A stretch of DNA of 64,000 nucleotides. Origin: a virus. The stretch is from IMG/VR virus record IMGVR_UViG_3300034072_000578, positions 44,413-108,412 of that record; one strand, given 5' to 3'. The notes beneath the pieces were generated by a model. That model did not search any database and was not told the DNA's origin. It saw only the letters and a list, made by a program, of their open reading frames with translations. The translations under genes and the position numbers were made by a program. Shown here in pieces: positions 8,483 to 26,528 of the stretch. Numbering within the stretch: position 1 is the stretch's first letter; every line of letters starts with the position of its first letter.

Positions 8483-9052
8483 ATGATAACTCTATTAACA
8501 ACACCTGCAACACCTAGATTAGAAGGTTATATAGAAGACTTCCGCTCTTTTGCTATTAGACTTCATGGCGATCAGCGTTATGGTGACTTCCCTTATCCTT
8601 TCCACCTAGCCCATGTAGAAGAAACTCTAGTAGCAAATGGCTACGATGACTTTAAATATCGAGCTAGCGGATGGCTTCACGATGTCCTAGAAGACTGCGA
8701 TATGTCTATTAACAGGCTGGCCGAATGCTTCGGCTCTGAGATTGCTGCTATGGTGTTCGCTTGCACTGGCGAAGGGGCCAATCGTAAGGAACGCAATGCT
8801 AGCGTCTACAAAAAACTAGCAGCACTTCCCGCAGCAGCGCCGGTTAAAGTAGCTGATCGTATTGTTAATATGAAGTTCAGTGTAATCAATAAGAGCAAGC
8901 AACTAGGAATGTATATTAGAGAGTTCGGGGATTTTTCTAATAATGTCCGCCCTCTTATGACAAACACAACGAAAGACGCTCTTCTGTGGAATCGACTAGA
9001 AGACGTAGTAGGACTAGCGGTTAAAAGAATGTCAGAAACAAAGGTTGCGTGA
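8483..9052 (+). CDS. HD-domain hydrolase, RelA/SpoT small alarmone hydrolase (Mesh1)-like
   Basis: H.DQ.Y..PY..HL..V, LHDVLED, VKVADR..N. Confidence 0.8.
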   Translation: MITLLTTPATPRLEGYIEDFRSFAIRLHGDQRYGDFPYPFHLAHVEETLVANGYDDFKYRASGWLHDVLEDCDMSINRLAECFGSEIAAMVFACTGEGANRKERNASVYKKLAALPAAAPVKVADRIVNMKFSVINKSKQLGMYIREFGDFSNNVRPLMTNTTKDALLWNRLEDVVGLAVKRMSETKVA

Positions 9053-9073
9053 CGTTCCCGAATCGGCTATAGC
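9045..9073 (+). promoter_or_regulatory. sigma70-type promoter with GANTC in the spacer
   Basis: TTGCGT-17-TATAGC with CGAATCG at 9059-9065, just upstream of a tRNA. Confidence 0.6.
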
Positions 9074-9085
9074 CCTGAAAATCAA

Positions 9086-9162
9086 GCGCGTTTAGCTCAG
9101 TTGGTAGAGCAGTCGGCCCCTAATCCGACAGGCCACGGGTTCGATCCCTGTAACGCGCACCA
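9086..9162 (+). tRNA. atypical tRNA with 8-nt anticodon loop CCCCTAAT (Arg CCT or suppressor-like CTA)
   Basis: GCGCGTT/AACGCGC acceptor, GTCGG/CCGAC stem enclosing 8 nt, TTCGATC T-loop, CCA. Confidence 0.7.
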
Positions 9163-9296
9163 GTTTCTAAGGTGAGTATCCCTCTTAAAGCGAAGTTACG
9201 CCTACTCGGTCATAGTAGCCTTCCGCCTTATTAAGTAAGGAATTAAATATGAACTATATGGAGCATGATATTTCCCGAATATGAAGGGAGATATTC

Positions 9297-9635
9297 ATGA
9301 AGAAACAACACTACGAAATTAACAAAGTTCAAAACCGCCTTTGGGGACTTTCGGGCGTCCTCGCCTCTTATGGCCCTAGAGATATTGGCTGGTGGCGACG
9401 TAATTTTTACGCCCTCGAAAACTTCGGTGATCGTCACCGGGTTATGAACGAGAAGCGTCAAAATCGTAACGCTCGCAAAGACGAAGAAATCCAGCACTAC
9501 AAGGTCAAGCTTCGCAGCAGACGTATGAACGTCCCCACTAAATGGGACGATGAACATATCTCTAAGTGGGGCGGCAAGTCTTGGAAGCTTGGGACTAAGG
9601 CCCGCAAACAGTGGGCTAAGAACGTTCGCCACTAA
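9297..9635 (+). CDS. basic, Trp-rich hypothetical protein
   Basis: R.RR..VP.KWDD...KSWK..K.RKQW C-terminus; GGGAG RBS. Confidence 0.65.
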   Translation: MKKQHYEINKVQNRLWGLSGVLASYGPRDIGWWRRNFYALENFGDRHRVMNEKRQNRNARKDEEIQHYKVKLRSRRMNVPTKWDDEHISKWGGKSWKLGTKARKQWAKNVRH

Positions 9636-9712
9636 CTATAACTAGTGGCAAGGGTAATGTAGCATTGAAGGTCGCTTGTTTCGTGCCATTTCCGGGGTAG
9701 CAACCGGCCCGC

Positions 9713-9740
9713 TTGACAACTTAGAATTACGTGTTATATT
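9713..9740 (+). promoter_or_regulatory. strong sigma70 promoter of the leader/Pth2-like operon
   Basis: TTGACA-16-TATATT with extended -10 TG. Confidence 0.7.
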
Positions 9741-9767
9741 GAAAGCTCACTACAGAAGGAAAGTAGA

Positions 9768-9852
9768 ATGCACTAGCTGCCCCATCGTCCTCCTTAAAGT
9801 AGTCAGTATCTAACCCAAAGCGATTTACTGATTTATTTTAAGATTAAAGGAC
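9768..9852 (+). promoter_or_regulatory. putative translational attenuator: uORF M-H-(UAG)-L-P-H-R-P-P-(UAA) plus an RBS-sequestering hairpin
   Basis: AAGGA RBS; ATG CAC TAG CTG CCC CAT CGT CCT CCT TAA; 9787-9808 pairs with 9826-9852, including the downstream RBS. Confidence 0.6.
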
Positions 9853-9859
9853 AATACAC

Positions 9860-10186
9860 ATGACTAAGAACTATTTCGACCATTACAATACCCTAGCCAA
9901 CAACAAAGACGTTTCAAGAGCAGACGTTTATACTCGCTGCATCATCAAGGCCATTCGTGCTAAGAGCGAGGACAAGGTTGGCGTTGCAATCGCCCTACTA
10001 AAGAAGGCTTTCACTAAGCCCACAAACCCTACTAAGGTCGCCAACGGCGCTCTACAGTATTGGGGCATCAATCACGCTCGCTATGAAGCCAGCCTGAAAT
10101 ATCGTTATCTAACGAAAGAATATCTAACAGAAGCCGAACAAGGCGCTTGGGAAGTAATTTTCCAAGCCACCAAAGGCGTAGCATAA
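9860..10186 (+). CDS. hypothetical protein (first gene of the attenuated operon)
   Basis: 108-aa ORF, AAGGA RBS, TAATG-coupled to the next gene. Confidence 0.7.
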   Translation: MTKNYFDHYNTLANNKDVSRADVYTRCIIKAIRAKSEDKVGVAIALLKKAFTKPTNPTKVANGALQYWGINHARYEASLKYRYLTKEYLTEAEQGAWEVIFQATKGVA

Positions 10187-10509
10187 TGACTCCATATTAT
10201 TGCTATATCTTTGTGCGCCAAGATATAACACCGGAGCAGCAACTAATCCAATTTGGGCATGTTGCTGCTAAGGCAGGCGCTAAGAGTCCCGATAAGCTTT
10301 GGGAGTATGTTCATTTCGTTGGGATCGGAGTTAGAAACGAAAGGGAGCTTCACAAAGCTGCGCTCCTAATGGCTGACAATGACATTCCTTATTCTACCTT
10401 TAATGAAGGGGCCATGGACGATGAGCTAACAGCCGTCGCCTCAGTCCCGGTAAGAGGTCCGACTAGGGAAGTGTTCAAGAATTATAAGACGTTACGCTTC
10501 GGAAATTGA
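10186..10509 (+). CDS. peptidyl-tRNA hydrolase 2 (Pth2/PTRHD1)-like protein
   Basis: YIFVRQDI...IQ.GH.A....V.NE.EL.....F.E....ELTAVA..P....F..Y..L matches the Pth2 fold pattern. Confidence 0.7.
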   Translation: MTPYYCYIFVRQDITPEQQLIQFGHVAAKAGAKSPDKLWEYVHFVGIGVRNERELHKAALLMADNDIPYSTFNEGAMDDELTAVASVPVRGPTREVFKNYKTLRFGN

Positions 10510-10528
10510 AATTTTCCTCTTTCCTACA

Positions 10529-10577
10529 CGGGCGGGAATCGCTATCTGTTTCAATACAGGGCGATTCCCGCCCTTTT
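10529..10577 (+). terminator. intrinsic terminator
   Basis: GGGCGGGAATCGC/GCGATTCCCGCCC stem followed by TTTT. Confidence 0.8.
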
Positions 10578-10599
10578 CGTTTCTGGGGAGTTATGAGCG

Positions 10600-10773
10600 G
10601 TGGAAGTTTACGTAATTTTGTATGGGTGTGCTGCTAAGCCCGAATTATCCGATGAAGTGAAGGGCTACCTTTACAACCGGATCGACGCCCAAGAATATTG
10701 CGACCAGCAGAATGAAGAAGCGGAAGAAGGCTATGCTTACTGGTTTGAGACAGCCCCGCAACTGATGGTATGA
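10600..10773 (+). CDS. small acidic protein (57 aa, GTG start)
   Basis: GGGGAG RBS, ATGA-coupled to the next gene. Confidence 0.45.
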   Translation: MEVYVILYGCAAKPELSDEVKGYLYNRIDAQEYCDQQNEEAEEGYAYWFETAPQLMV

Positions 10774-11141
10774 TAATAACCTTGCTAGTATGCTTGGTAA
10801 TTAAGCATTTCATCTTCGATTTCGTTTATCAACCAGCCTATCAATGGCAGAACAAAGGAAGATACGGGCATTGGGGCGGACTAGTTCATTCCGCTCAACA
10901 TGGGATAGCTTCTGCCGTAATATTGCCATTCTTTATTGATGATAAGTCAGTAATAGCCTATCTGGTAGCGTTCGAATTCATCGTTCACTACCATATGGAC
11001 TACTTCAAGATGAAGTTGAATGCACATATGGGGTGGAAGTGTAACACCCATTATGAGTTTTGGGTTTGGACAGGTTTCGACCAACTAATCCATTCACTAA
11101 CTTACCTAGTAATGGCGGAAGTAGTTTACCGTTACAGCTAA
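10770..11141 (+). CDS. DUF3307-family membrane protein
   Basis: KH..FDF..Q, H...HG, HY..D..K, GFDQ..H. Confidence 0.8.
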   Translation: MIITLLVCLVIKHFIFDFVYQPAYQWQNKGRYGHWGGLVHSAQHGIASAVILPFFIDDKSVIAYLVAFEFIVHYHMDYFKMKLNAHMGWKCNTHYEFWVWTGFDQLIHSLTYLVMAEVVYRYS

Positions 11142-11175
11142 GGTAAGAAAAAGTTTCTCTCGCCAAACTTTTCTG

Positions 11176-11204
11176 TTGACGGGCGAATCTCAGGTCGCTA
11201 GACC
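11176..11204 (+). promoter_or_regulatory. sigma70 promoter with GANTC in the spacer
   Basis: TTGACG-17-TAGACC, GAATC at 11185. Confidence 0.65.
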
Positions 11205-11278
11205 GAAATCATCTACTGGCTATCGGGTGGTTTAGTTAGTAGGTTCCTTTTTTAACCGCTCTGGTAAGAGGTATTACC

Positions 11279-11878
11279 ATGACTCAGTTGAACGCCGAAA
11301 CGGCATCTGAATTCGATTTCGTTGCCCTGATCGACGCTTCGGGTTCGATGGGCAATCCGTCCGTCAAGATGCCGGGGAAGACCCGCTGGCAGGAAATGCA
11401 AGAGTCGCTGCTGGGCTTCATCCGCGCCATCGAACCGTTCGACGCTGACGGCATCGATGTCGGTGTGTTCGGCCCGAACTTCGAAGTCGAAGAAGGCGTT
11501 ACGTCCGCCACCATCGACAAGCTGTTCGCTTCGCGTGGTCCGCGTGGTTCGACCCCGCTGCATGATGCCATCGCGTGGACCATCGACAAGCAGAAGAAGA
11601 CCGGCAAGAAGACCTTCGCCGTCATCTTCACCGATGGCGAGCCGAACGATCAGGCGCTGGTCGCCAAGCTCATCACCGATGCTTCGAACAACATCGCGAA
11701 GGATGAAGACCTGACGTTCCTCTTCATCCAGATCGGCGACGACAAGGCGGCGCGGAACTATCTCGATCATCTGGACGACCAGTTGACCGGCAAGTTCGAC
11801 ATCGTGGACGTTGTGAGCGTCACCGAAGCGGACTCGATGGAACCGCTGGCCCTCATCAACAAGGCCATTGCCGACTAA
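11279..11878 (+). CDS. Ter-associated von Willebrand factor A domain protein
   Basis: MIDAS DASGSM, GSTPL, FTDGEP, FIQIGDD..A..YL..LDD. Confidence 0.88.
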   Translation: MTQLNAETASEFDFVALIDASGSMGNPSVKMPGKTRWQEMQESLLGFIRAIEPFDADGIDVGVFGPNFEVEEGVTSATIDKLFASRGPRGSTPLHDAIAWTIDKQKKTGKKTFAVIFTDGEPNDQALVAKLITDASNNIAKDEDLTFLFIQIGDDKAARNYLDHLDDQLTGKFDIVDVVSVTEADSMEPLALINKAIAD

Positions 11879-11989
11879 TCGCCGGCAATACATCACCAAC
11901 CTAGTTAGTTGGTATCGTTCTGAATAACCTTGGGGTAGTAGAAGTAGGAAGAAATGCTTCTACTACCCCTTTTAGTAGCGGGGTTTAAT

Positions 11990-12436
11990 ATGGGTTTCCT
12001 CGATAGCCTCAAAGGCATCGCCTCCAACTTCATGGCTGATGCTGAAAAGGCTCTTAGCCGCATGTCCGACAAGGCGACTTTCATTCGCACCGTCCAAGCT
12101 TCCTATCTGGTCGCTGCCGCTGATGGCAACGTATCGGATGAAGAGAAGGTGGTTCTTGGCCGCGTCATCGCCAAGAAACTTCCTTCCTTCAAGTCGTCGG
12201 AGGTTGCTAAGGCAATCGATGACTGCGCCGAAGAAATGTCCCTCTCTGCCGTAGCTGGTAAGGTTGCTCTTATGGAGAGCATCGAAAAGGCTGCTGGCAC
12301 TGATGGTGCAAAGGTCATCATGCTTGGCATGTTGGCCGTGGCCAATGCCGACAATGAGTTCCAACCCTCCGAACAGCAGGTGGCGCGGGCCATTTGCGTC
12401 AAGCTCGGTCTTCGCCCGCAGGAGTATGCGCTATAA
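11990..12436 (+). CDS. terB: TerB-family protein
   Basis: LVAAADGNVSDEEK and VANADNEFQPSE repeats. Confidence 0.8.
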   Translation: MGFLDSLKGIASNFMADAEKALSRMSDKATFIRTVQASYLVAAADGNVSDEEKVVLGRVIAKKLPSFKSSEVAKAIDDCAEEMSLSAVAGKVALMESIEKAAGTDGAKVIMLGMLAVANADNEFQPSEQQVARAICVKLGLRPQEYAL

Positions 12437-13035
12437 TGGAATGGTTACTTGCTAACCTGATGACGTTCGGTAGTATCGTTCTGCTGGACATCGTTCTCTC
12501 CGGTGATAACGCCGTTATTATCGGGGCAAAAGCCGCCAGCCTTCCCGCCGAACAGCGTAAGAAGGTCATCAAATACGGCATGTTCATGGCCGCAGGTTTC
12601 CGCATCGTTCTGCTGTTCCTCGCGACCTACCTGCTACAGATTCCCGGTATCCGACTCGCCGGTGGTCTTGCCCTGCTCTATGTGGCGTGGGGTATGTTCA
12701 AGGATATCAGGGACAATGGTATCGTTGATGGTAGCACGGAGAACGTAACGGCTGCTGCGAACTATCGTTCCGCACTCTTCGCCGTTGCTCTTGCCGATCT
12801 TTCGATGTCCATCGATAACATTCTTGCCGTTGCTGGTGCTGCCGGGGATCATTACTTCGCGCTCATCTTCGGTATCGTGTTGTCGATCTTCATCATGATC
12901 TTTGCTGCCAATGCGGTAGCGAGACTCATTGAGAAGTATCGTTGGCTGGCTTGGTTCGGCTTGCTGCTGGTCCTCTATATCGCGGGTCATCTGATCTATC
13001 AGGACGTTCCAGTCATCGTGTCTTGGACTTCCTAA
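12436..13035 (+). CDS. terC: TerC/YjbE-family membrane protein
   Basis: LDIVLSGDNAVII and ADLSMSIDNILAVAG, multiple TMs. Confidence 0.9.
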   Translation: MEWLLANLMTFGSIVLLDIVLSGDNAVIIGAKAASLPAEQRKKVIKYGMFMAAGFRIVLLFLATYLLQIPGIRLAGGLALLYVAWGMFKDIRDNGIVDGSTENVTAAANYRSALFAVALADLSMSIDNILAVAGAAGDHYFALIFGIVLSIFIMIFAANAVARLIEKYRWLAWFGLLLVLYIAGHLIYQDVPVIVSWTS

Positions 13036-13046
13036 TAAGCTAATAG

Positions 13047-13072
13047 AAACGGGGCTTAACGGCCCCGTTTTT
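13047..13072 (+). terminator. intrinsic terminator
   Basis: AAACGGGGC/GCCCCGTTT stem plus T-run. Confidence 0.8.
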
Positions 13073-13153
13073 ATTTGACCTTAATCAAATAATACTAGAT
13101 TAAATATAAGATCAGGGCCAAGAAAAAAAGTTTGGGCTTGGTGCATTTTTCTC

Positions 13154-13182
13154 TTGCACCGAATCGATTCGTCGCCTAGATA
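13154..13182 (+). promoter_or_regulatory. promoter of the large RNA operon, with two tandem GANTC sites
   Basis: TTGCAC-17-TAGATA with CGAATCGATTCG in the spacer; A/T-rich UP element. Confidence 0.7.
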
Positions 13183-13189
13183 GAGATCA

Positions 13190-14006
13190 CCGGCAAGGAA
13201 ACGAACCGGTCGCTGCTTGAAGCGGATAAGCTAGAGTAATCTGGTGAAAGGTTAGGAGCCAAACCAAGCCGCCTAGTAATAGGTCAACTTAAGCAACATG
13301 GAACTGACCGAAAGGTTCCTCTATACAAGTAGGGGATAGATTGAAGGATAAGGGTTTTAGGTCCGAAAGGATAACTAGCAGAGCTAATCGGTGAGCTAGT
13401 GAAGTCGCAAACACCTGCACCAAGCAAAACTTATTCGAAGTCGATAGTGAACCATAAGGGTAATAGTTCGACCATTAGCGTGGAAGAGCATTAGCCAGTT
13501 ACCAAAGGTGGAGACACTTTACGTAACCGTTGAGTAGCCCGCAAGGCGAAAGACATGAGGCGTGTGGCATGTTGTTCCCCAAAAGGGAATGATACCATTG
13601 GACAAGCACGTCTTAACTGGAAACAACTTAGCATAACGGTAATGCGATGGACTCTTAATCCATTGATTGTTGGTTCAAATCCAGCAGTTGATTCATCAAC
13701 GCAAAGCCTTGTCCAGCTATAAGTGAAAGGCACCTAAGCCCTACCTAGAGTGGGGGCATGAAGTCTCGCAAGGATGGATTGTTTGTAGTGGAAGAACTCA
13801 TTGCTCTTTAGCGGGAGCTTAATGGAGGTAAAACTTCAATGGGATTAAGATACTATGAGTAGCTTGTAGTGATATCGCAAATGCCAGCGATTAATAAAAT
13901 GGCGGTGTTGGTAGTTACTATGATACCTTGACCGGGTTATAGTGGAAAAGGCCCTAAACAATAAGGGGTTTAAGACTGCCCTTAGTAAGTGTATTCTCAG
14001 CTTGCT
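13190..14006 (+). ncRNA. GOLLD-like giant structured RNA
   Basis: About 800 nt without a credible ORF, many GNRA-capped hairpins, segment GTAACCGTTGAGTAGCCCGCAAGGC and 3' GTGTATTCTCAG that I recall from GOLLD RNAs, adjacent to tRNAs; boundaries approximate. Confidence 0.75.
13622..13693 (+). tRNA. trnK: tRNA-Lys(CTT) embedded in the GOLLD-like RNA, no encoded CCA
   Basis: CAACT/AGTTG acceptor core, ATGGA-CTCTTAA-TCCAT, GTTGG-TTCAAAT-CCAGC. Confidence 0.75.
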
Positions 14007-14016
14007 AATTACATAT

Positions 14017-14065
14017 GGGGATAATCGCGTAAAGTCATTGGTCTGACCGCTCGGTTTCCCCACCA
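14017..14065 (+). ncRNA. 49-nt minihelix-like RNA ending in ACCA
   Basis: GGGGA/TCCCC-A-CCA closing an irregular hairpin. Confidence 0.5.
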
Positions 14066-14066
14066 T

Positions 14067-14144
14067 GGCCTATGTAGCTCAGTCCGGTTAGAGCGTCCGA
14101 TAAATAAGGAAGGTCGTTGGTTCGAATCCAACCCTAAGGCCCCA
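14067..14144 (+). ncRNA. tRNA-like RNA with a shortened anticodon arm
   Basis: Canonical D-arm and T-arm, CCA; anticodon arm is TCC-GATAAATAA-GGA. Confidence 0.65.
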
Positions 14145-14145
14145 T

Positions 14146-14242
14146 AGCGCGGTAGTTTGAGTGTGCTTCTGGACAGAAGTATGCAGACAAAACAGCTTTC
14201 GGAGGATTGAAGACGGGGGTTTGAATCCCTCTCGCGCTTCCA
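14146..14242 (+). ncRNA. tRNA-like RNA with an expanded D-domain and no clear anticodon
   Basis: AGCGCGG/TCGCGCT-T-CCA, inserted hairpin GTGTGCTTCT-GGAC-AGAAGTATGC, T-loop TTTGAAT. Confidence 0.6.
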
Positions 14243-14244
14243 AC

Positions 14245-14354
14245 GGGACGGTAATTCAGCGGTAGAAGACGAAACCTTGTCTAAGCCCTTTGAGGGTGAT
14301 GGACCCCAAGACAAGGCCAGATAGTCGGAGGTTCGATCCCTCCCCGTCCCGCCA
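14245..14354 (+). ncRNA. tRNA-like RNA with a branched domain replacing the anticodon arm
   Basis: GGGACGG/CCGTCCC-G-CCA, D-like arm, CCTTGTCT/AGACAAGG helix enclosing a CCCT-TTG-AGGG hairpin, GGAGG-TTCGATC-CCTCC. Confidence 0.65.
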
Positions 14355-14570
14355 CTTAATAACATTGAAACATGATGGTCTGCACATTGTCATGTTTCAA
14401 CCTTGTTAAGTTTCACATTATCGGTGGGCTGAAATCCAGCGATAGAGGCAAGCCCCTAAGCAAGGCTCCTACGTGAACCTAATCCATAGTGTTAGGAGCG
14501 ATGATTTACGCTAGCTATGATTAGGGGAAGCTAGAAAGGTTATAGACCTGATAAACTTCCCCTTCTTAGT

Positions 14571-14647
14571 GGACCCTTAGCTCATTTGGTTAGAGCGACG
14601 GACTTTTAATCTGTAGGTGCTGGGTTCGAATCCCAGAGGGTCCACCA
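14571..14647 (+). tRNA. trnK: tRNA-Lys(TTT)
   Basis: Loop CTTTTAA, CCA. Confidence 0.93.
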
Positions 14648-14770
14648 CTTACTTAGTAGTGATAGAATACGGGTTGGTTCTTCAATTTGCTTTTGCCCAA
14701 AAGCTGTCGATCCGTATTCTTTCTTTATTAAGTGGGGTGTTATGTATTTTCTTACGTTATGACCTACCAA

Positions 14771-14854
14771 GCCCTCTTGGCGTAATTGGTAGGCGCAGCA
14801 GACTTAAAATCTGCCGGTTGATCCGTCTCGGTTCGAGTCCGAGAGAGGGCACCA
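14771..14854 (+). tRNA. trnL: tRNA-Leu(TAA)
   Basis: Loop CTTAAAA, variable arm, CCA. Confidence 0.93.
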
Positions 14855-15013
14855 AGTTTCAGAGCCAACTTCGCGGGCGTCTCCATCCGCGAGAAAACAC
14901 CTAGACATACCCTCTTGCATGTGGGTAGTTAATGGACGGTGGGGTAAAAGCCCTCAATATGCAGCGTTATATGACTGGCCTTCGGTGTCGCAACCTAGCC
15001 TTTCGACTAACCT

Positions 15014-15035
15014 AGGCCCTTCGGGGCCTTTTTTT
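15014..15035 (+). terminator. intrinsic terminator of the RNA operon
   Basis: AGGCCC-TTCG-GGGCCT followed by a T-run. Confidence 0.85.
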
Positions 15036-15048
15036 GGAGTCTTACTAA

Positions 15049-15588: not shown

Positions 15589-15614
15589 CAGCTATATTAC
15601 TAGCCGTTTTAATT

Positions 15615-15654
15615 ACTCCCGTTCTTGCTATAAAGGCTCGAACGGGAGTTTTTT
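15615..15654 (+). terminator. intrinsic terminator
   Basis: ACTCCCGTTC/GAACGGGAGT plus T-run. Confidence 0.6.
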
Positions 15655-16910: not shown

Positions 16911-16914
16911 TCCC

Positions 16915-18100: not shown

Positions 18101-18106
18101 TAATAT

Positions 18107-19204: not shown

Positions 19205-19212
19205 AATGCATA

Positions 19213-19422
19213 TCAGCAAGGGCCTACCCTGTAACGCGGTTCATTATCCGGCCCCTTATAGAGGTTCATGCATTCATCACTAGTAGCAGGGTCCGCTACA
19301 GTAATGGGCTTAGCCTCCATAGTAGGGGCGGGTTGTATGTAAGTATTAACCGCCACCATAGCAGACAGTGCAATACAGGCCATGCTAATGGCGATGACAA
19401 ACAGAAGACAATTCTTAAACAT
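19213..19422 (-). CDS. small secreted/membrane protein
   Basis: Hydrophobic N-terminus. Confidence 0.5.
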   Translation of the reverse strand: MFKNCLLFVIAISMACIALSAMVAVNTYIQPAPTMEAKPITVADPATSDECMNLYKGPDNEPRYRVGPC

Positions 19423-20092
19423 TGCTCAAACCCCATGTTTCATTGAGAAAGATAATAAGCGGATTAGTAAGGTCAATATGAACCCCTAGGGAGTAATCAT
19501 CTTCCCCTACCTCTTCCCTGCTATAGGTATAAAGCCCCATATTGGCATAGGTAGTGCGCCATTCACAGGAATGCGGCCTTGATCCCCCCTCTATAGTCAT
19601 GCGCTTAGACTGGAATTCATGAATAGTCTTAGCAATGTCTTTAGGAAGCGAATTAATGCTTTCCGAAGAAAGGATAAATTCTTGTTCGCTACTGCTAATC
19701 CATTCAATCCCTTTATTAGCCGCAATAATAGTTGCGGCAAATAGGGCGGTTGAGTCCATGTCTAGGGTTGGTTTGTTCCCCATCACGTAATCAACCAAAC
19801 GGCGGACCTTTTGAAGCCCCTTAAGGTTAGTCCGCCATCCATTCTTGCGGACCTTATTAAACATGATCCAAGGATCAACATTAAGGGCAATGAAGAAAGC
19901 CGCAACATTACGGCTATCGGCGAATTGAGCCGCTACCCTACGCAATTCAACATGGCTTTTATGAGGGGCCTTTTCCCGCTCAAAGTTAGCGCGTTCCAGT
20001 AGGGCGGAATTGATACGCTTTACCATTGAGTCGACTTCGCGACTCTCACTGGCTTTGATATCTAGTATCAGGTCCAAAAGGGCGGACTGCAT
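19415..20092 (-). CDS. hypothetical protein
   Basis: 225-aa ORF with AGGAG RBS. Confidence 0.7.
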   Translation of the reverse strand: MQSALLDLILDIKASESREVDSMVKRINSALLERANFEREKAPHKSHVELRRVAAQFADSRNVAAFFIALNVDPWIMFNKVRKNGWRTNLKGLQKVRRLVDYVMGNKPTLDMDSTALFAATIIAANKGIEWISSSEQEFILSSESINSLPKDIAKTIHEFQSKRMTIEGGSRPHSCEWRTTYANMGLYTYSREEVGEDDYSLGVHIDLTNPLIIFLNETWGLSNV

Positions 20093-20102
20093 AGTCTGAC
20101 TC

Positions 20103-20315
20103 CTAGTTGTAAATCCGTTGGATTAGCTTTCGCTTCCCATCGGCGCGGATTCCCCATTTGGAACCCCTCCAAACGTTAATGCAGCTAATGTGAAACCAGT
20201 TAGGGGAAGTAATGCGAAAGCGCTTTCCGTTGCGGTCGACTCCCGTCGCCACAAAAGAAACGTAATCGACTCCGTTAACATTTTGCATGGCTGTTACTCC
20301 ATCGGCTTGTATCAT
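20103..20315 (-). CDS. hypothetical protein
   Basis: ATGVDRNGKRFRI...WRGS.W small phage protein. Confidence 0.55.
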   Translation of the reverse strand: MIQADGVTAMQNVNGVDYVSFVATGVDRNGKRFRITSPNWFHISCINVWRGSKWGIRADGKRKLIQRIYN

Positions 20316-20644
20316 TGTTCGTTCTCCATATATTCCAGATACTCAGCGCGGGATGAATGAGCTATCATAATCCCATAGGGCCGATAACTACCCCGACTCA
20401 TCCCGTAGGGAACGACAAAAGGATAAGGCGATTTAACCTTAGCCTTTAGATTGCGCCAAGCATCGGTGACAGTCGCCGTCACTTCACGCTTGTTAGCGCC
20501 ATAAAAACCAGCGTCACGAATGGACTCCGCTTCGCTTTCAATAATGGCTTTCAATTCGCGCCGACTATCAACCTTAACAATATAGCTATTGTCAGGCATA
20601 TATGCGCCGCGCATTCCCGTTGCTATGTGGAAATATTCAGCCAT
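20312..20644 (-). CDS. hypothetical protein
   Basis: GGAG RBS; G.RG.YMPD motif. Confidence 0.6.
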   Translation of the reverse strand: MAEYFHIATGMRGAYMPDNSYIVKVDSRRELKAIIESEAESIRDAGFYGANKREVTATVTDAWRNLKAKVKSPYPFVVPYGMSRGSYRPYGIMIAHSSRAEYLEYMENEQ

Positions 20645-20707
20645 CTTTTTTACTCCATCTAAATTCATAGTAAGGGCGGACTATTGCTAGCCCGCCCCTA
20701 TTAGAAG

Positions 20708-21757
20708 TTAGAGCATTTCAAGCGCCAGCGACATTGCCGCATCTTTCGCCCGATTGCCGTTGCCGATAGTGGCGCTTTCCCACCGCTTGCCTTCCTTAGT
20801 GCGGGCAACGTGATCCTGATAGAAGGTGACGGCATTAAGAGCGCCCCAAAGCGTGCCATCTGCTGCTGCCTTATCCGCACCCGGACTATCGGTGAAAAGG
20901 CGGACCATTTGCGCAACGTTATTGCGCTGGTTACTTGTCACGCCTTCCCGATCAAAATCGAGTTCAGTGCGAAGCCAATCGGAGTCATCCTTAAGGGCTT
21001 TCGGACTGTAAAGCTTCGCGAAGAAACGCGAAAGCTTGTCATCAGTCATACGGACCTTGCTCATTGCCTTTACGGCTTGAACATATTCCGCGAAAGCCGA
21101 GTCGAATTCGCCCAATTGAGTAAACAGCTTATCAGCGTCGAATTCGCCGCTATTGCGTTGTTTCGCCGTTGTTTGGGCGTTCATCACCGCCGAAAGACTG
21201 ACAGTGTTTTGACAAACAACCCGCACCGACGTTGCACGGGCAGTCCGCGCATAGGTTCCGTCGTAGGAAGTCAGCAGCAGGATATAGGGAAGGATGATAT
21301 CGCCAGCGATGTCGCCTTGCCCCTCTTCACGCTTGGCAAGCCCCCATACAACGCGACCGCCCTTTAGAGCGCCCGCAACGTCCATCTTAAAGCCGTTACC
21401 CTTAACAAGGCTCATAAGCCCCTCTAGCAGGTCAAGGGGTTGCGCGGGGTCATAGTGCGACTCCGACATCACCGAAAGGGGATCGCCGGTGTCAGTGCGA
21501 TACATGACTGCGCGGTTTTCATAGGAACGAGTCAGCATGGCCAGCGATTCATCATCCCCTTCCTTGAAATTGGGGTTAGGGATCGAATAGAAGGCAGGGG
21601 CCTTTGCGACCTGATAGTCAAGGCCAGCAACCTGCGCGATTTGTGCGGCGTCCATATCATCGGTGATATGATTGCCAAAGCCATGCCATGGCTTACCCTC
21701 CGAAGCGCGGTAAGCGATAGCGGCCTTGCCAAGGGTGAAGTCAAGTGCGTGGGACAT
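20708..21757 (-). CDS. DUF932/DUF945 (TIGR03299-like) phage/plasmid protein
   Basis: PWHG.G, AGLD..V.K, AGALKGGRVVW, YILL.TSYDG, VRVVCQNT, GTLWGALNAVT.Y.DH. Confidence 0.88.
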   Translation of the reverse strand: MSHALDFTLGKAAIAYRASEGKPWHGFGNHITDDMDAAQIAQVAGLDYQVAKAPAFYSIPNPNFKEGDDESLAMLTRSYENRAVMYRTDTGDPLSVMSESHYDPAQPLDLLEGLMSLVKGNGFKMDVAGALKGGRVVWGLAKREEGQGDIAGDIILPYILLLTSYDGTYARTARATSVRVVCQNTVSLSAVMNAQTTAKQRNSGEFDADKLFTQLGEFDSAFAEYVQAVKAMSKVRMTDDKLSRFFAKLYSPKALKDDSDWLRTELDFDREGVTSNQRNNVAQMVRLFTDSPGADKAAADGTLWGALNAVTFYQDHVARTKEGKRWESATIGNGNRAKDAAMSLALEML

Positions 21758-21816
21758 AAATAAAGCCTTTCTAAATGTTGCGGAGTCTTTCGCTCCCAAA
21801 GCTAGTGGCGCATTAA

Positions 21817-22017
21817 TTAATATCCGAATATTTCCGTATGCCGTTCGGCCCATGCAAGGGCAATTTCCCGCATCTGGTCGGGAGTATAGAGCCGCGTCAC
21901 ATTGGACGCCCACAAACTACCGTAGGCAGTAGCGTAAAAGTTATCTTTATTAACGGCGATATCCTCAATGCCCTTAATTGCCTGTTTCATTGTTTCATCG
22001 CTAATAAATTGTTTCAT
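21817..22017 (-). CDS. hypothetical protein
   Basis: 66-aa coupled ORF. Confidence 0.5.
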   Translation of the reverse strand: MKQFISDETMKQAIKGIEDIAVNKDNFYATAYGSLWASNVTRLYTPDQMREIALAWAERHTEIFGY

Positions 22018-22163
22018 GCGTAAATCGCCTTTCTTGTCGTGATATATGCACCATAGGCGTTATCCGCCTTATCCATGGCGCGGCTTGCACCAGCGCTTGT
22101 CTTATAGCGCTTTGTTTTTCCGGTGACTTTGTTAGTCACTTCATAGCGAATTGGCTTATTCAC
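22014..22163 (-). CDS. small basic hypothetical protein
   Basis: YEVTNK.TG...YKT...A..A.DK.DN.YG. Confidence 0.5.
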   Translation of the reverse strand: MNKPIRYEVTNKVTGKTKRYKTSAGASRAMDKADNAYGAYITTRKAIYA

Positions 22164-22505
22164 TTGTGACAAACCCAAAGAGGAAAGCCGCGATAACAGC
22201 CAAGAAAAGAAGATTGGCAATTACCAAAGCGATATCGAGATAAAGATTATTCGTCATGGTTCCGACTCCAGATTGGTTAGTTTATTCCACTAGCTTTAGG
22301 AACGGCGGTTAATTGCTTAACCGCTTTCCTAATGGCTCAATCGTTAGTGTCTGATTGAGTAAGCCCCATTGTGGGTTGCTAGGTAAAGCGGATGACATAA
22401 CGGCCCAACCTAGCCCCTAAGGGGAACGCCTAACCATTAGGCGATTAACCTAGGGGCTTACCGTCATCGGGCCTAGGTGGCGGGGCTTGTTCCCGCCGAT
22501 GTCCC

Positions 22506-22535
22506 TATCTAGGGGCGGATTCGTGATTCGGTCAA
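22506..22535 (-). promoter_or_regulatory. pre-early promoter with two GANTC sites
   Basis: TTGACC-GAATC-AC-GAATC-CGCCCC-TAGATA. Confidence 0.7.
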
Positions 22536-22642
22536 GCGCTAAAATGAAATTATTTTTGCCCCTAATCTAAGCTCATCGGACGGCTAGCTTAGATTAGCGG
22601 ATTCCTTGCTCTAATACCAAACAGACACCCGTGCGCGTATGT

Positions 22643-22659
22643 TGCAAGAGCCATGCCAA
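22643..22659 (-). promoter_or_regulatory. sigma54 (-24/-12) site
   Basis: TTGGCATGGCTCTTGCA versus consensus TGGCACG-N4-TTGCW. Confidence 0.55.
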
Positions 22660-22664
22660 ACCTA

Positions 22665-22765
22665 ATAGCCCCTATAAGGCGTTTTAAGCCCCTTACAGGG
22701 CCTTTAGGGGGCCTAAGCTACCCTAACACCTAAAAGAGGTGATTCGGCCCTGTATGAGCGTTTCA
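22665..22765. repeat. periodic element, copy B
   Basis: Same architecture, CTAAGCTACCC core at 22713. Confidence 0.6.
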
Positions 22766-22863
22766 AGAGTGCGACTCGTAAGAAGGTCGGAAATAAGCAA
22801 ATAAAGTTATTTCAAGTGAAAAGTGATTTTTTTAATCTCATTCCAGAAAAGTGATTTTTAGGT

Positions 22864-22893
22864 TTGACATTAAATGCCGAATCGCCCTAAGAG
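22864..22893 (+). promoter_or_regulatory. rightward promoter with GANTC
   Basis: TTGACA...CGAATCG-CCC-TAAGAG; upstream AAAAGTGATTTTT direct repeats. Confidence 0.6.
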
Positions 22894-23035
22894 GGAGTCA
22901 CCGGACGGGGCAACCCAGACGGTCCAGCCTCCCCTAGAGGCAACTGGCTCTTTCTCATTGTTGGACTAATGCCCTTCGCTAGGCGGCACAAAAACCTAGG
23001 AAGGAAATTAAATAGAACCCCATTAAAAAAGGGGC

Positions 23036-23064
23036 TTGCGAATCACTAAATAATTCGCCATTAA
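23036..23064 (+). promoter_or_regulatory. promoter with GANTC overlapping the -35
   Basis: TTGCGAATC...GCCATTAA upstream of the 23094 ORF. Confidence 0.5.
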
Positions 23065-23093
23065 ATAATCACACCGAACGAAAGGAACCTACC

Positions 23094-23246
23094 ATGAAAA
23101 AATTCTGGATCGAATGGCTTGACGGTAGCTTGATTGGGGAAGTAGAAGCGGAAAGCGAAAGACAAGCCCGCAACATATGCGAGAACCACGCTACGGGGTG
23201 GGGGCTGGAGCCGGGAACCTACCAGCTACGGGAGAAGCCGGAGTGA
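23094..23246 (+). CDS. small hypothetical protein (50 aa)
   Basis: AAGGA RBS; MKKFWIEWLDG... Confidence 0.55.
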   Translation: MKKFWIEWLDGSLIGEVEAESERQARNICENHATGWGLEPGTYQLREKPE

Positions 23247-23299
23247 CCGGGAGGGGGCCGCGAGGCTCCCACCCCACCCCAAGGGGCTTCTGGCTAGTC

Positions 23300-23824
23300 C
23301 TATGGTGAAAGTTGGCCGGTTCCCGGTTTCAAAGTTGATTTCCAGCCAGTTCCCAATTTTATCTTTGATATTTGGGATTTATGCACACCAAATAGTTTAG
23401 CTATATCTTTATGATACATTCCGGTATCCAATAGCTTTCTAATTTCTTCTACTTTTGTTTCTGTCAATTTAGAATTAGGCTTTTCAGAGCCTTTTAATGC
23501 TTTGGAATAATCTATCTTACCATTCCTAACCGCATCATCCGCATTATCTTGGTAAGTTCCCCAAGCTAAATTAGTCCAAACATTATTAGACTTATCATCA
23601 TCTAAGTGCCTACAGACAAATTTACCGTCTGTGGGCTTAGGTCCGTTAAATAAAGTGCATACCCATATATGGATATTATAATCTTTGCCACCACTTATAA
23701 TATTTAGATAACCGGGTGTGGTAACTTGCGGCTTCCTAAATCTATTAGTAGTCGGATTAAATACCCTACCTAAGTTGGATATTAATAAGGGTGTTTCTGG
23801 TATGGGGAGGAATGTTTCTTTCAT
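23300..23824 (-). CDS. HNH homing endonuclease
   Basis: ISNLGRV, H..V...F.GP, RHLDDDKSNN..NLAWGT..DN..D, C-terminal HTH; GGAG RBS. Confidence 0.88.
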   Translation of the reverse strand: MKETFLPIPETPLLISNLGRVFNPTTNRFRKPQVTTPGYLNIISGGKDYNIHIWVCTLFNGPKPTDGKFVCRHLDDDKSNNVWTNLAWGTYQDNADDAVRNGKIDYSKALKGSEKPNSKLTETKVEEIRKLLDTGMYHKDIAKLFGVHKSQISKIKLGTGWKSTLKPGTGQLSP

Positions 23825-24113
23825 TTCTCCCGCGTAAGATACAAAATGCCAAAAATCAATAGACAGTAGTATCCCAAAATGCCAATTAATGAGAAACCTA
23901 AAATGCCCATATCTCATTAACTCCATAATGCCAGAATATAAGAAACCCCATTAGAAACGAAAATAGGAGAGGTTGACCCGAAGCCAACGCTCTCCTACTG
24001 ATTCGCTGTCGCTTCACGAATCATGCTCCCTATTTACGGGCATAAGGGAGATTGCCCTATCATAATAAACTGTTGGTCATTACCTATACCTCCAATTAGA
24101 GTGGAAATAAGTG

Positions 24114-24347
24114 TTAAGCTGCCCTTGCCGTCTCAATCTTGATCTTCCTTCCCTGATGGTGGAAGGTCAAGGAGTCAAAGCCAAGTCGCTTCAATGACTG
24201 GAAGCCCTTAAGGGCCTTGGCGGAAGCCTCTTCATCGACCAATTGGCCCAGCTTCCGCACTCCCTGCTGCGGGGTGACGCCTAGAACCGTAAAGTCAGCC
24301 TTTTTGGAATGAGGCTTAAAAACCTTTATGACGTTCTGTTTCGGCAT
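24114..24347 (-). CDS. hypothetical basic protein
   Basis: GGAG RBS, own promoter. Confidence 0.6.
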   Translation of the reverse strand: MPKQNVIKVFKPHSKKADFTVLGVTPQQGVRKLGQLVDEEASAKALKGFQSLKRLGFDSLTFHHQGRKIKIETARAA

Positions 24348-24456
24348 TTGATGTTACTCCAAGGATAGCAGGTTCATAGTTAAAACCGCAGACCCTTAAT
24401 TTGGTTCCAACAATCACCTTTCGTTTCTGCGTTCTCAGGCTTTCTCACCTGTTCCC

Positions 24457-24485
24457 GGTCTATAGACGATTCGGGGGTTTGGCAA
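24457..24485 (-). promoter_or_regulatory. promoter with GANTC in the spacer
   Basis: TTGCCA-17 (contains CGAATCG)-TAGACC. Confidence 0.65.
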
Positions 24486-24487
24486 GC

Positions 24488-24517
24488 AAAAAAAAGGCAG
24501 GGCGTCAACCCTGCCTT
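24488..24517 (-). terminator. intrinsic terminator
   Basis: AAGGCAGGG/CCCTGCCTT stem with a U-run on the - strand. Confidence 0.75.
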
Positions 24518-24551
24518 AAGTTGTTTAGAAAGGTGGTAAGAGGCACTTTTA

Positions 24552-25166
24552 TTAGTGCGTCAAAACCGTTGCCTCTTCGCTCGCTTCGCCGCCTTCCTGC
24601 TGGCCCTCTTCCTTGTTTTCTTCGGAGTTGCCCGAAAGATGCTGACGGGCACCAGCCAGCGCTTCGGCGAGATTGTTGCTGGAATTCGCCGCAGCCGCAC
24701 CAGACCGCGAGGTCGGAGTCTTGCGAACATGAGGCTCACCATCCGGCAGACGGGTGATATAGGCGAATTCGCCATCCTCATCCGAAAGCGTGTCGAACTT
24801 GCGTCCTGCCCATTCCCGGCCTGCCTGCGTCACGTTGTTGAGCTTCGTAACCACGCCCATCATGAACGAACGGAGGGGGTTCTTGCCGCCCTCGGCAGTC
24901 TTGGGGATCGCCACCTTGGCGGTCATGCCGACGTTCAGCAGAGCGATATCGGGGCTGATGGCGTTGAGGGCTTCCACAAGGCTCTTGCCACCCTGTGCGG
25001 CCTTATTGACCTTCTTACGGCGGAGTTCGTTGGGATCGAAGTTGGCGATGATGCCACCACGGGCAGCAGCTTCTGCCACTTCTGCCTTCACCAGCTTGCC
25101 ACCGACACGGACCTTGCCGGCCTGATCGACGGTGAAACCGGCCTGTTCGATTGCTTCCTTGTTCAT
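24552..25166 (-). CDS. hypothetical pre-early protein with GC-rich, host-like codon usage
   Basis: 204 aa, own promoter, AAGGAAG RBS and terminator. Confidence 0.75.
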   Translation of the reverse strand: MNKEAIEQAGFTVDQAGKVRVGGKLVKAEVAEAAARGGIIANFDPNELRRKKVNKAAQGGKSLVEALNAISPDIALLNVGMTAKVAIPKTAEGGKNPLRSFMMGVVTKLNNVTQAGREWAGRKFDTLSDEDGEFAYITRLPDGEPHVRKTPTSRSGAAAANSSNNLAEALAGARQHLSGNSEENKEEGQQEGGEASEEATVLTH

Positions 25167-25222
25167 GTTGTCTTCCTTCCGACTGATGTTTGTGTTTTCG
25201 CCTTCTCAGTGGCGATGACTAT

Positions 25223-25251
25223 TAGCTAATGGCCTTAGATGATTCGTGCAA
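25223..25251 (-). promoter_or_regulatory. promoter with GANTC next to the -35
   Basis: TTGCAC-GAATC...-TAGCTA. Confidence 0.6.
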
Positions 25252-25334
25252 GAGCTTTTTTCACTCTTACCAACTTTTTTTGTCGAAACTTGTTCTCAGG
25301 GCTTCCCACCAGCATTTAATCTTAGATTATATCC

Positions 25335-25432
25335 TAGAATGCGTTTTAAGCCCTTCTCAGAGCTTTTTAAGGGCTTTAGGGTAGTTGGGTAGCCTAGAAC
25401 GCACAAAAGCCCTCTAAGGGGCTTTAAATCGG
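25335..25432. repeat. periodic element, copy C (reverse orientation)
   Basis: GGGTAGCCTAG core at 25387 with AAGCCC/GGGCTT arms. Confidence 0.6.
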
Positions 25433-25451
25433 CTAATAATGAAAGATGGGT

Positions 25452-25539
25452 GTTGACCGGGCAGCTAGGTTTTCGGGTGGGGGTGGATAACCCAGCTATG
25501 AGGGGGCTTCATTGCGTCGGAAGGACACACCCGGTCAAC
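25452..25539 (-). ncRNA. putative small RNA
   Basis: 10-bp closing stem GTTGACCGGG/CCCGGTCAAC directly downstream of the 25575 promoter; no ORF. Confidence 0.45.
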
Positions 25540-25546
25540 GCTTATG

Positions 25547-25575
25547 TCTATGGGGTGATTCGCTGATTCGGTCAA
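25547..25575 (-). promoter_or_regulatory. promoter with two GANTC sites
   Basis: TTGACC-GAATC-AGC-GAATC-ACCC-CATAGA; near-copy of the 22535 promoter. Confidence 0.65.
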
Positions 25576-25632
25576 GCGATATCTTTGAACCAGAATAAAA
25601 CGAAACCAGAAAGCCCGCTAACCTTATCTAAA

Positions 25633-25648
25633 TGTTTCACGTGGAACA
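25633..25648. promoter_or_regulatory. parS: parS-like ParB binding site
   Basis: TGTTTCACGTGGAACA (reverse complement TGTTCCACGTGAAACA) matches the parS consensus TGTTNCACGTGAAACA. Confidence 0.75.
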
Positions 25649-25765
25649 CTCTAAGGTTAGATTAGGGAACCTTTAGAAGGCAAAATAAAAGCCCCGCATC
25701 CTTAGACGCGGGGCAACCTAATAACCATTCCTTAAGCTTCTTGATGATCCGCTTTAGCTTGCGCT

Positions 25766-26464
25766 TCATTCCAGATATCCTTTCACTTCCGACTCAACCC
25801 CCTTGCTGAGCTTCACCTTAGAACCTTCTTCATAGCCATGTCCAGCTATTTCTTGGCTTCCGGTGTAAAGGGCAATATCTTTCTTGCTGGTCTTTTGCCC
25901 TTTGGCTTTGGGCATTTCCCTAAGAATGATATCTTGTTTCAGCACAATAAGAGCGTTACCAGCTACTTCCTTTTCTGCAATCATTTTAACTAGGGATTCA
26001 TGAACCGCCACAAGGAACCCCAATTTAAAGTTATGCTTGATTTCATCACCCTTAACCCCATTGTTAATGAGCCGGTGATAAGCAACAGTCATGGGAAGCT
26101 TATGATAGCCGGTGATAAGGCTATCTGAAATGAGGTCATAAAGCCAGTTGGCATATTGAAGGTCTACGGGAAGACCGTAAAAGATGATGTTTTTATTGTC
26201 TTCGCTTTTAACCGCATATGTATCGGTAAGCTTAGCAATGGCCTTACAGATAAGCTCCATCTTATCCGTCTCTTTGCGGGGCTTCTTAGTAAAGCTTTCA
26301 ACCTTACTGGACTTAACTTCTAGGTCAGTCTCAGTGAGGCGATACTTTGCCATCATCTTTTCGAAAGCATTAGCAAACGCCATTGCCTCTTCGGGAGTTC
26401 CAGCGTTATTAGCCTTCGCTTTAATTGCGTTCAGCTTGCGGATGATGTCGTCCCGGTTGGTCAT
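25766..26464 (-). CDS. DUF2786-domain protein
   Basis: N-terminal II.KL..I.A.A....T.EEA..F...MMAKY.L; YG...D...A..L; F..GF. Confidence 0.8.
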   Translation of the reverse strand: MTNRDDIIRKLNAIKAKANNAGTPEEAMAFANAFEKMMAKYRLTETDLEVKSSKVESFTKKPRKETDKMELICKAIAKLTDTYAVKSEDNKNIIFYGLPVDLQYANWLYDLISDSLITGYHKLPMTVAYHRLINNGVKGDEIKHNFKLGFLVAVHESLVKMIAEKEVAGNALIVLKQDIILREMPKAKGQKTSKKDIALYTGSQEIAGHGYEEGSKVKLSKGVESEVKGYLE

Positions 26465-26499
26465 GTTTGCTTCCTAGGTGATTCGTTGCTGTTGAGACT

Positions 26500-26528
26500 G
26501 GTTTAGGGGGTTATTGGGGTTAGTGCAA
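26500..26528 (-). promoter_or_regulatory. promoter
   Basis: A-rich UP element, TTGCAC-17-TAAACC, GANTC at 26480. Confidence 0.55.

Follow-up and report, generated by a model that had tools for sequence, protein, structure and literature searches.

The virus record IMGVR_UViG_3300034072_000578 is a complete tailed-phage genome of 108,412 bp with a 127-bp terminal overlap and 46% G+C. Its right-hand 64 kb (G000:C1:44413-108412, hereafter the window, to which positions refer unless stated otherwise) contains a cluster of promoters that carry boxes with a GANTC core, the target of the methylase CcrM, which methylates any GANTC. The genome consists of a structural module on the minus strand, a block on the plus strand that holds 26 tRNA genes along with small genes, and a minus-strand block of nucleotide-metabolism and repair genes (RNR, NAMPT, RNA ligases, PNKP, DNA ligase and an SbcC-like gene). 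About 60% of the encoded proteins are without an assigned family.

The ten promoters listed in the original prediction are all present at the -35 coordinates and on the strands it gave, and its description of one or two GANTC sites per spacer, mainly CGAATC, was borne out. We identified an eleventh promoter with the same core (P26528, Table 1). The core common to the eleven sites consists of a (C)TTGAC or TTGCA -35 element, a mostly GC-rich spacer of 17-19 nt and a -10 element of the CTAGATA/TATAGA type. An A- or T-tract lies upstream at about -40 to -46, (A/G)TCA is conserved about 7 nt beyond the -10, and a GC hairpin often opens the transcript. Each site has the elements that define a primary-sigma core promoter (a TTGAC-like -35, a spacer of 16-19 nt and a -10) and faces downstream genes or RNAs.

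Table 1. Box-bearing promoters and related features of the window. Promoters are named after the position of their -35 element; box centres are relative to a start site assumed 7 nt past the -10 in all cases.
Feature	Position	Strand	Sequence elements and boxes	Context
P9045	9045..9073	+	TTGCGT-N17-TATAGC; CGAATCG (GAATC 9060-9064), centre about -18	drives stand-alone tRNA 9086-9162
P11176	11176..11204	+	TTGACG-N17-TAGACC; CGAATCT (last base off consensus), about -24	upstream of vWA-TerB-TerC operon 11279-13035
P13154	13154..13182	+	TTGCAC-N17-TAGATA; palindromic double box CGAATCGATTCG (13160-13171), about -26 and -21	
P18978	18949..18989	-	TTGACC-N18-TAGGAT; CGAGTCG, about -22; TGATTCG, about -45	no convincing open reading frame (ORF) downstream
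P22535	22506..22535	-	TTGACC-N18-TAGATA; CGAATCA, about -28; CGAATCC, about -21	
P22864	22864..22899	+	TTGACA-N18-TAAGAG; CGAATCG, about -19; GGAGTCA at predicted start	
P23036	23036..23066	+	TTGC-GAATCA, box overlapping -35 (centre about -31); -10 TTAAAT	50-aa ORF 23094-23246 with ribosome-binding site downstream
P24485	24457..24485	-	TTGCCA-N17-TAGACC (or TATAGA); CGAATCG, about -20	upstream of 77-aa ORF and HNH endonuclease gene 23300-23926
P25251	25223..25251	-	TTGCAC-N17-TAGCTA; CGAATCA, about -27	upstream of 204-aa gene 24552-25166
P25575	25545..25575	-	TTGACC-N19-TAGACA; two CGAATCA, about -29 and -21	
P26528	26480..26528	-	TTGCAC-N17-TAAACC; spacer box-free, CGAATCA at about +12	upstream of DUF2786/DUF7168 gene 25766-26464
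Orphan inverted pair	24000..24022		GATTCG-N11-CGAATC	intergenic, no clear -35/-10
CtrA-box-like element with inverted pair	30194..30231		TTAA-N7-TTAA, then CGAATCA-CCCC-GATTCG (30215-30231)	intergenic gap, outside promoter cluster
Second-class promoters	genome 3080, 31184, 41384; window 41902	-	TGTTATAAT-like extended -10	
Second-class promoter	9732	+	TGTTATAAT-like extended -10	
MT-A70-family N6-adenine methyltransferase gene, 186 aa	6615..7175	+	PF05063, E=9e-27; phrog_359 DNA methyltransferase	

The claim that the phage places such sites in its promoters systematically holds for this class of promoters but not for a second one, which has no GANTC. Promoters of the second class follow the pattern TTGACA-N13-15-TGTTATAAT, with an extended -10 and a variable -35, and precede structural and other genes. 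The coexistence of box-bearing and box-free promoters suggests two temporal classes.

Next, we focused on which sequence is enriched. GANTC in general, which the original prediction named as the motif, proved too broad: intergenic GANTC occurs at the expected frequency (53 sites versus 49.6 +/- 6.7 in dinucleotide-preserving shuffles), and only the heptamer YGATTCG is selected. This heptamer (CGAATCR in the sense direction, counted on either strand) occurs 19 times between genes versus 2.65 +/- 1.65 expected, with a maximum of 10 in 1000 shuffles, which rules out chance as the source of the excess. The signal is genuine and far from random. Of all 6-mers, CGAATC ranks second to poly-A in intergenic enrichment (24 versus 4.0 expected), and CGAATCA alone occurs 12 times between genes versus 1.1. 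When the NGANTCN variants are collapsed by strand to 32, enrichment is confined to TGATTCG (12 intergenic, 5 coding) and CGATTCG (7 and 4), with the rest at background. In a promoter scan that was blind to the spacer sequence (TTG[AC]NN-N16-19-TANANN), YGATTCG was present in 6/34 intergenic matches versus 0/97 within genes. Coding GANTC is depleted (185 versus 336 in shuffles); its ratio of 0.74 under a maximal-order Markov model is the second lowest of the 16 palindromes of the form XYNY'X'. YGATTCG is depleted in coding DNA too, and this scarcity inside genes suggests that the heptamer is also read away from promoters. The T-loops of tRNA genes (GGTTCGAATCC) were considered as a source of the signal; they contain 24 GANTC sites, which were masked, and they leave the promoter boxes unexplained.

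The heptamer is the sequence preferred by GcrA, a cell-cycle regulator of Alphaproteobacteria that acts as a methyl-reading cofactor of sigma70. Among methylated GANTC sites, GcrA prefers TGATTCG or, more broadly, YGAKTCK (found with MEME in GcrA-bound sites), and changes to the flanks alone abolish its activation (Haakonsen et al. 2015, PMC4647560). The GcrA DNA-binding domain has been crystallised on TGATTCG, with contacts to all seven bases (Wu et al. 2018, PMC5887438). A later study gave the consensus as YGAKTCG, with boxes mostly at spacer positions -20 +/- 1 and -30 +/- 2 or between +5 and +30 (Wu et al. 2023, PMC9976885). In the eleven phage promoters, 13/16 boxes match YGAKTCK. Seven boxes are centred between -18 and -22, six between -24 and -31, and one each at -45, -3 and +12. 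On the non-template strand, 10 of the 13 consensus boxes read CGAATCR, as in the cryo-EM scaffold of the GcrA transcription activation complex, AAAAAAAGAG-TTGACA-CCCGGG-CG(m6A)ATC-CCTGC-TATAAT, in which m6A is N6-methyladenine. The sequence TTGCCA-AACCCC-CGAATC-GTC-TATAGA of P24485 has the order, orientation and spacing of this scaffold. The boxes stand at variable offsets, as single copies, direct repeats and inverted repeats, and as their offsets and arrangements vary, a monomeric reader fits.

Among known systems, the phage promoters most resemble the GcrA/CcrM promoters of Caulobacter crescentus (csM, ctrA P1, mipZ and cckA). Both combine a primary-sigma core with the TGATTCG/YGAKTCG heptamer, place it (in the phage, relative to the assumed start) in the spacer near -20 or -30 or just past the start, and include promoters with two boxes; the cryo-EM scaffold, which derives from the csM promoter, also carries CGAATC on the non-template strand, as the phage does. 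Unlike the Caulobacter promoters, those described here are predicted, lie on a phage genome, and comprise about a dozen early promoters clustered in 17 kb. The phage template also arrives from outside the cell, with a methylation history unlike that of the chromosome.

To place these promoters in an evolutionary context, we compared the phage with its relatives. In portal and capsid proteins, it shares about 47-52% identity with siphophages of 106-117 kb whose hosts are Rhizobium, Pseudomonas syringae, Xanthomonas and Stenotrophomonas; SSU5-like Klebsiella elements also belong to this group. No cultured phage matched 7 kb of the window in a megablast search. The closest relative found was G001 (IMGVR_UViG_3300034069_000130; 63.9 kb, 73% portal identity), which is syntenic to the window up to about position 13,000 and ends where the promoter cluster begins. 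G001 contains two promoters of the form CTTGAC(G/C)-CGAATCG-N10-11-CCTAGAT, one of which carries additional boxes immediately flanking the core, ahead of the -35 and past the -10, and its counterpart of P13154 reads CTTGACG-CGAATCG-N10-TAGATA. Searches of viral contigs with the DUF932, 204-aa and 363-aa proteins found no relatives that span the promoter cluster, and a search of bacterial genomes with TerC found nothing. Orthologous footprinting was therefore confined to the last 3 kb of G001. The contig G010 was set aside as a relative, having one gene in common with this phage.

The pattern TTGMN{2,16}CGAATCR failed to separate genomes, and the ratio of intergenic to coding density was used instead. 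For YGATTCG, this ratio is 9.9x in this phage and 9.8x in G001. No enrichment was found in Stenotrophomonas phage BUCTxx99 (0.6x) or Pseudomonas phage nickie (1.3x), whose hosts have no GcrA. As these relatives with gammaproteobacterial hosts show no enrichment, the boxes are a trait of a sub-lineage rather than of the family.

The same design was found in a second lineage. We scanned IMG/VR for CTTGACCGAATC-N12-14-TAGA, a pattern for which single matches are expected by chance, and found several large contigs of 53-60% G+C with 5 to 18 or more copies each. The promoters of these contigs are near-identical (GTGGAAAAAGTG-CTTGAC-CGAATCR-N11-CCTAGAAA-CGAATCA-(short leader)-GGAGAC-ATG), and each precedes one small gene. 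The search left the base after the first GAATC free; in the 86 unique copies it is G in 51, A in 33, and C and T in one each, and at the sequence level this choice of A or G mirrors the Y of YGAKTCG. The second CGAATCA, past the -10, was likewise absent from the search pattern. Cultured relatives of these contigs are Erythrobacter phage XM05 and the CbK-like phage vB_EliS-L02 (PMC9127768). Between 78 and 96.5 kb, the XM05 genome (PV416404.1) contains 25 near-identical two-box promoters (GTGGAAAAAGTGC-TTGACC-GAATCR-...-CCTAGAAA-CGAATCA), which are unannotated in the record and each precede one of a series of consecutive small hypothetical genes. XM05 has 86 intergenic YGATTCG sites, a 6.2x enrichment. 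Set against the Caulobacter promoters, those of the Erythrobacter phages number in the dozens and hold their two boxes at fixed positions, one box overlapping -6 to +1. Similarity between the CbK-like Erythrobacter phages and this phage is limited to distant matches in PhoH, capsid and tape-measure proteins. GcrA (PF07750) and a CcrM-type methylase (PF01555) are absent from this phage, from four CbK-like contigs and from XM05. As these phages encode neither, a shared host factor is the economical reader of the heptamer.

We consider it probable that the box-bearing promoters are a family of early promoters read by GcrA. At least eleven short units of an early, promoter-dense region would start from promoters recognised by the host primary-sigma RNA polymerase (RNAP), with the A/T-tract as an UP element. 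Selection would have placed in them one or two copies of CGAATC(A/G), the reverse complement of the high-affinity GcrA site. In an alphaproteobacterial host, GcrA, pre-bound to region 2 of sigma70, would contact the N6-methylated box on the spacer face opposite RNAP (at about -20 and -30) or just past the start. This contact would stabilise RNAP and the formation of the open complex, and early phage genes and RNAs would fire strongly in cells that contain GcrA, on DNA that bears m6A. The sequence data thereby suggest that early phage transcription is coupled to host DNA methylation and cell-cycle state. At the level of sequence, the proposed recruitment of GcrA-bound RNAP, part of the original prediction, finds strong support in the consensus, the zone and orientation of the boxes, their recurrence in the Erythrobacter phages and their absence from relatives with gammaproteobacterial hosts.

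Several clues suggest that the host is likely an alphaproteobacterium. Erythrobacter belongs to the Alphaproteobacteria, and the promoter design common to this phage and the Erythrobacter phages points to a host of this kind. The best matches of the phage RNR are in Caulobacter and Brevundimonas phages. The tRNA-His gene (4220-4295, plus strand) has an A73 discriminator, C rather than G at position -1 and a 9-nt D loop. Only Caulobacterales, Rhizobiales, Rhodobacterales and Parvularculales have such G-1-less A73 tRNA-His, and bacteria with the G-1 type always have C73 (PMC3064791). The tRNA-His of the Stenotrophomonas phage has C73.

A number of observations weigh against GcrA as the reader, or against an alphaproteobacterial host. 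The sequence is of metagenomic origin (subsurface, soil and wastewater); the acceptor stem of the phage tRNA-His has G1.G72 and A2.C71 mismatches instead of G1-U72; and by capsid protein, the closest cultured phages are those of Pseudomonas, Xanthomonas and Stenotrophomonas (about 50-52% identity, versus 47% for Rhizobium phages). The G001 orthologue of P11176, the vWA promoter, contains no GANTC. While heptamer identity and orientation are, on the sequence, the strong points of the match, position is weakly diagnostic because a spacer of 17-19 nt forces sites to about -33 to -15. About 8/14 boxes upstream of the assumed start lie within the strict published windows. The second box of the Erythrobacter phages lies near the -10, at about -6 to +1, where Caulobacter GcrA sites are scarce (PMC4647560). 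In vitro, methylation shifts the affinity of GcrA for double-stranded DNA just about 2-fold. Virion DNA may also be under-methylated, as host CcrM is restricted in the cell cycle and the phage has no CcrM-type methylase.

Other phages of alphaproteobacteria add to this side. phiCbK shows 1.1x for YGATTCG and one TTGAC-N-CGAATCR match, and Caulobacter phage Seuss (NC_047757.1) has no YGATTCG in 85 kb. Rhizobium phage RHEph10 has no boxes in promoter context, and RHph_Y2_11 is marginal (3.9x, but with just 3 intergenic sites). A survey of the phage genomes then available with a GcrA position-specific scoring matrix "yielded no evidence" of clustering or asymmetry (Mascolo et al. 2022, PMC9437464). 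Seuss contains almost no GANTC at all (0.4/kb in coding and 0.7/kb in intergenic DNA), a strategy opposite to that of the phage described here. RHEph10 was rejected as a comparison, as this portal relative has a different replication module and no signal.

The boxes may instead be the sites of another DNA-binding protein, such as an early phage regulator, whether repressing or activating, or a host factor distinct from GcrA, in which case the match to GcrA would be coincidental and methylation irrelevant. We regard this as unlikely. The palindrome in P13154 (CGAATCGATTCG) and the two inverted pairs outside promoters are typical of dimeric regulators, the very rigid consensus of the Erythrobacter phages could reflect a dedicated factor, and among the many proteins of this phage that have no family assignment an unrecognised regulator could exist. 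However, box spacing varies between single copies, direct repeats with a 7- or 8-bp period and inverted pairs 0, 4 or 11 bp apart, unlike a fixed dimer. The same heptamer occurs in two lineages without common early or regulatory genes in the DNA compared, and the R at its seventh position mirrors the Y of YGAKTCG. No helix-turn-helix, repressor or sigma-type family was found among the 80 window proteins scanned, many of them unassigned. Fixed-spacing dyads with a cognate regulator gene, by which operators of a dimeric repressor are recognised, were not found for these boxes.

Alternatively, the heptamer may be a core-promoter element read by the host holoenzyme itself, or may have been inherited by duplication of an ancestral strong promoter, with no role for a cofactor or methylation. 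In the Erythrobacter phages, the boxes occupy fixed places directly next to the -35 (CTTGAC-CGAATC) and the -10 (TAGAAA-CGAATCA), the start region of this phage keeps only an initiator-like (A/G)TCA, and phage promoter families often spread by duplication. In this phage, however, the box floats: it follows the -35 at a distance of 0, 1 or 3 nt or precedes the -10 by 3-6 nt, and in one promoter it lies at +12; the spacers are otherwise unrelated, so the promoters are not recent duplicates. The same phage also has a strong consensus promoter class without the heptamer, and the heptamer is depleted within genes. These points make this reading quite improbable. That methylation is sensed without GcrA, through m6A-altered RNAP contacts or melting or a methylation-sensitive repressor with the methyl group from CcrM or the MT-A70 enzyme, has precedents in Dam+ hosts (Mu mom and IS10 pIN) and would suit the adenine methyltransferase gene of this phage and G001, but is very improbable, as it leaves selection on the YGATTCG flanks unexplained when CcrM methylates any GANTC, and the Erythrobacter phages, with the strongest signal, have neither methylase family tested.

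Returning to GcrA as the reader of the boxes, a wider scenario can be drawn, which as a whole we put forward tentatively and consider rather doubtful. In this scenario, at least two unrelated lineages would have independently wired their early promoters to GcrA. Early transcription would then read both the stage of the cell cycle, since replicating cells contain GcrA, and the epigenetic state of phage DNA. Loss of GANTC methylation on new genomes would turn the early promoters off with no need for a phage regulator, and the box-free extended -10 promoters would serve late genes. The switch-off by dilution of methylation, already part of the original prediction, is an attractive extension, but speculative.

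This last point depends on the source of the methyl mark. The MT-A70-family methyltransferase gene has a counterpart in G001 (G001:C1:57112-57624) and none in the Erythrobacter phages; further homologues are found in Rhizobium, Rhodobacter, Brevundimonas, Vibrio and Stx phages. Its relatives in the PDB are of the eukaryotic AMT/METTL3 type and give no specificity. Judging from its family, the enzyme may be a source of m6A supplied by the phage. Should it methylate GANTC, or adenines in general, the mark would be independent of host CcrM, and the idea that unmethylated progeny genomes fall silent would be weakened.

Coupling of mobile-element transcription to N6-adenine methylation of promoters is known from the Dam/GATC-sensitive promoters of enterobacterial phages and transposons (Mu mom, P1 and IS10); for the phage described here, it is a proposal. 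The Dam/GATC systems use a different methylase and motif, act by repressor exclusion or direct effects on RNAP at one or a few promoters, and have no sigma-bound methyl-reader across a whole promoter family. To our knowledge, GcrA/CcrM, a textbook case of epigenetic, cell-cycle-coupled transcription, has been described solely for chromosomal genes. In full-text literature searches, we found no report of phage promoters with GcrA or GANTC boxes. The kind of promoter is known from the host GcrA regulon; that phages of two lineages use it systematically appears to be novel.

Phages of alphaproteobacteria are known to use another host regulator in a similar way. CtrA boxes control the promoters of several such phages, a strategy termed "lytic deferment" (Mascolo et al. 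2022, PMC9437464). The proposed GcrA promoters follow this concept, in that sites for a host master cell-cycle regulator are clustered in intergenic phage promoters, and phiCbK-like phages are involved in both, but the regulator and motif differ. TTAA-N7-TTAA occurs twice in the 108-kb genome, in neither case within the eleven promoters, which do not belong to the CtrA-controlled class. phiCbK-like phages also encode GcrA homologues, which were proposed to act on host genes (Gill et al. 2012, PMC3556154). These too tie phages to the GcrA module, and the box-rich Erythrobacter phages are CbK-like in morphology and lineage (PMC9127768). However, the phiCbK-like phages bring the GcrA protein, whereas this phage and the Erythrobacter phages bring DNA sites and no GcrA gene.

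If GcrA reads these boxes, phages exploit a methyl-reading sigma cofactor, which would bear on the interest of alphaproteobacterial phages in the host cell cycle beside CtrA-dependent lytic deferment. The promoters would form a natural, compact and very strong GcrA-dependent set, to which the Erythrobacter phages add dozens of near-identical two-box members. The heptamer may also help to predict, from sequence, which metagenomic phages have alphaproteobacterial hosts. As the cultured Erythrobacter phages XM05 and vB_EliS-L02 carry the design, the hypothesis is directly testable.

The box promoters differ in what they face. P13154 lies upstream of a GOLLD RNA and of an array of tRNAs and tRNA-like sequences, and P22535 is followed by an ORF-free leader of about 280 nt, a 68-aa ORF, the DUF932 gene and two further genes. 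Except for P9045, P11176, P13154, P22535 and P26528, the box promoters mostly face very small ORFs or ORF-free stretches. No ORF of at least 40 aa follows P22864, whose product is probably a short RNA, and the ORF-free products of box promoters may be small RNAs. Between the divergent promoters P22535 and P22864 lie about 600 nt without an ORF of at least 30 aa (22257-22874). Several box-promoter transcripts begin with GC-rich hairpins (e.g., 13192-13215 and 22470-22495). The GOLLD RNA (13555-14003, plus strand; Rfam RF02032) scores 183.6 bits versus a threshold of 150 and contains a tRNA-Lys(CUU) at 13622-13693; a weak tRNA-like match follows at 14068-14140. For the tRNA downstream of P9045 (plus strand), ARAGORN gives an enlarged anticodon loop with an anticodon of four bases (CCUA), and the Rfam tRNA score is 57 bits.

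Outside the cluster, the element that combines a CtrA-box-like sequence with an inverted heptamer pair could be a regulatory or replication-related site. Just upstream of P25575, TGTTTCACGTGGAACA (25633-25648) is one base off the chromosomal parS consensus and forms the centre of a larger inverted repeat; parA and parB were not seen in the window. In the whole genome, GTAC is strongly avoided (17 sites versus about 252 expected), the hexamers AGATCT, AGGCCT, CAGCTG, CCCGGG, CCGCGG and CTGCAG have zero copies, and CCNGG occurs at 0.52 of expectation. This scarcity looks like restriction-site avoidance.

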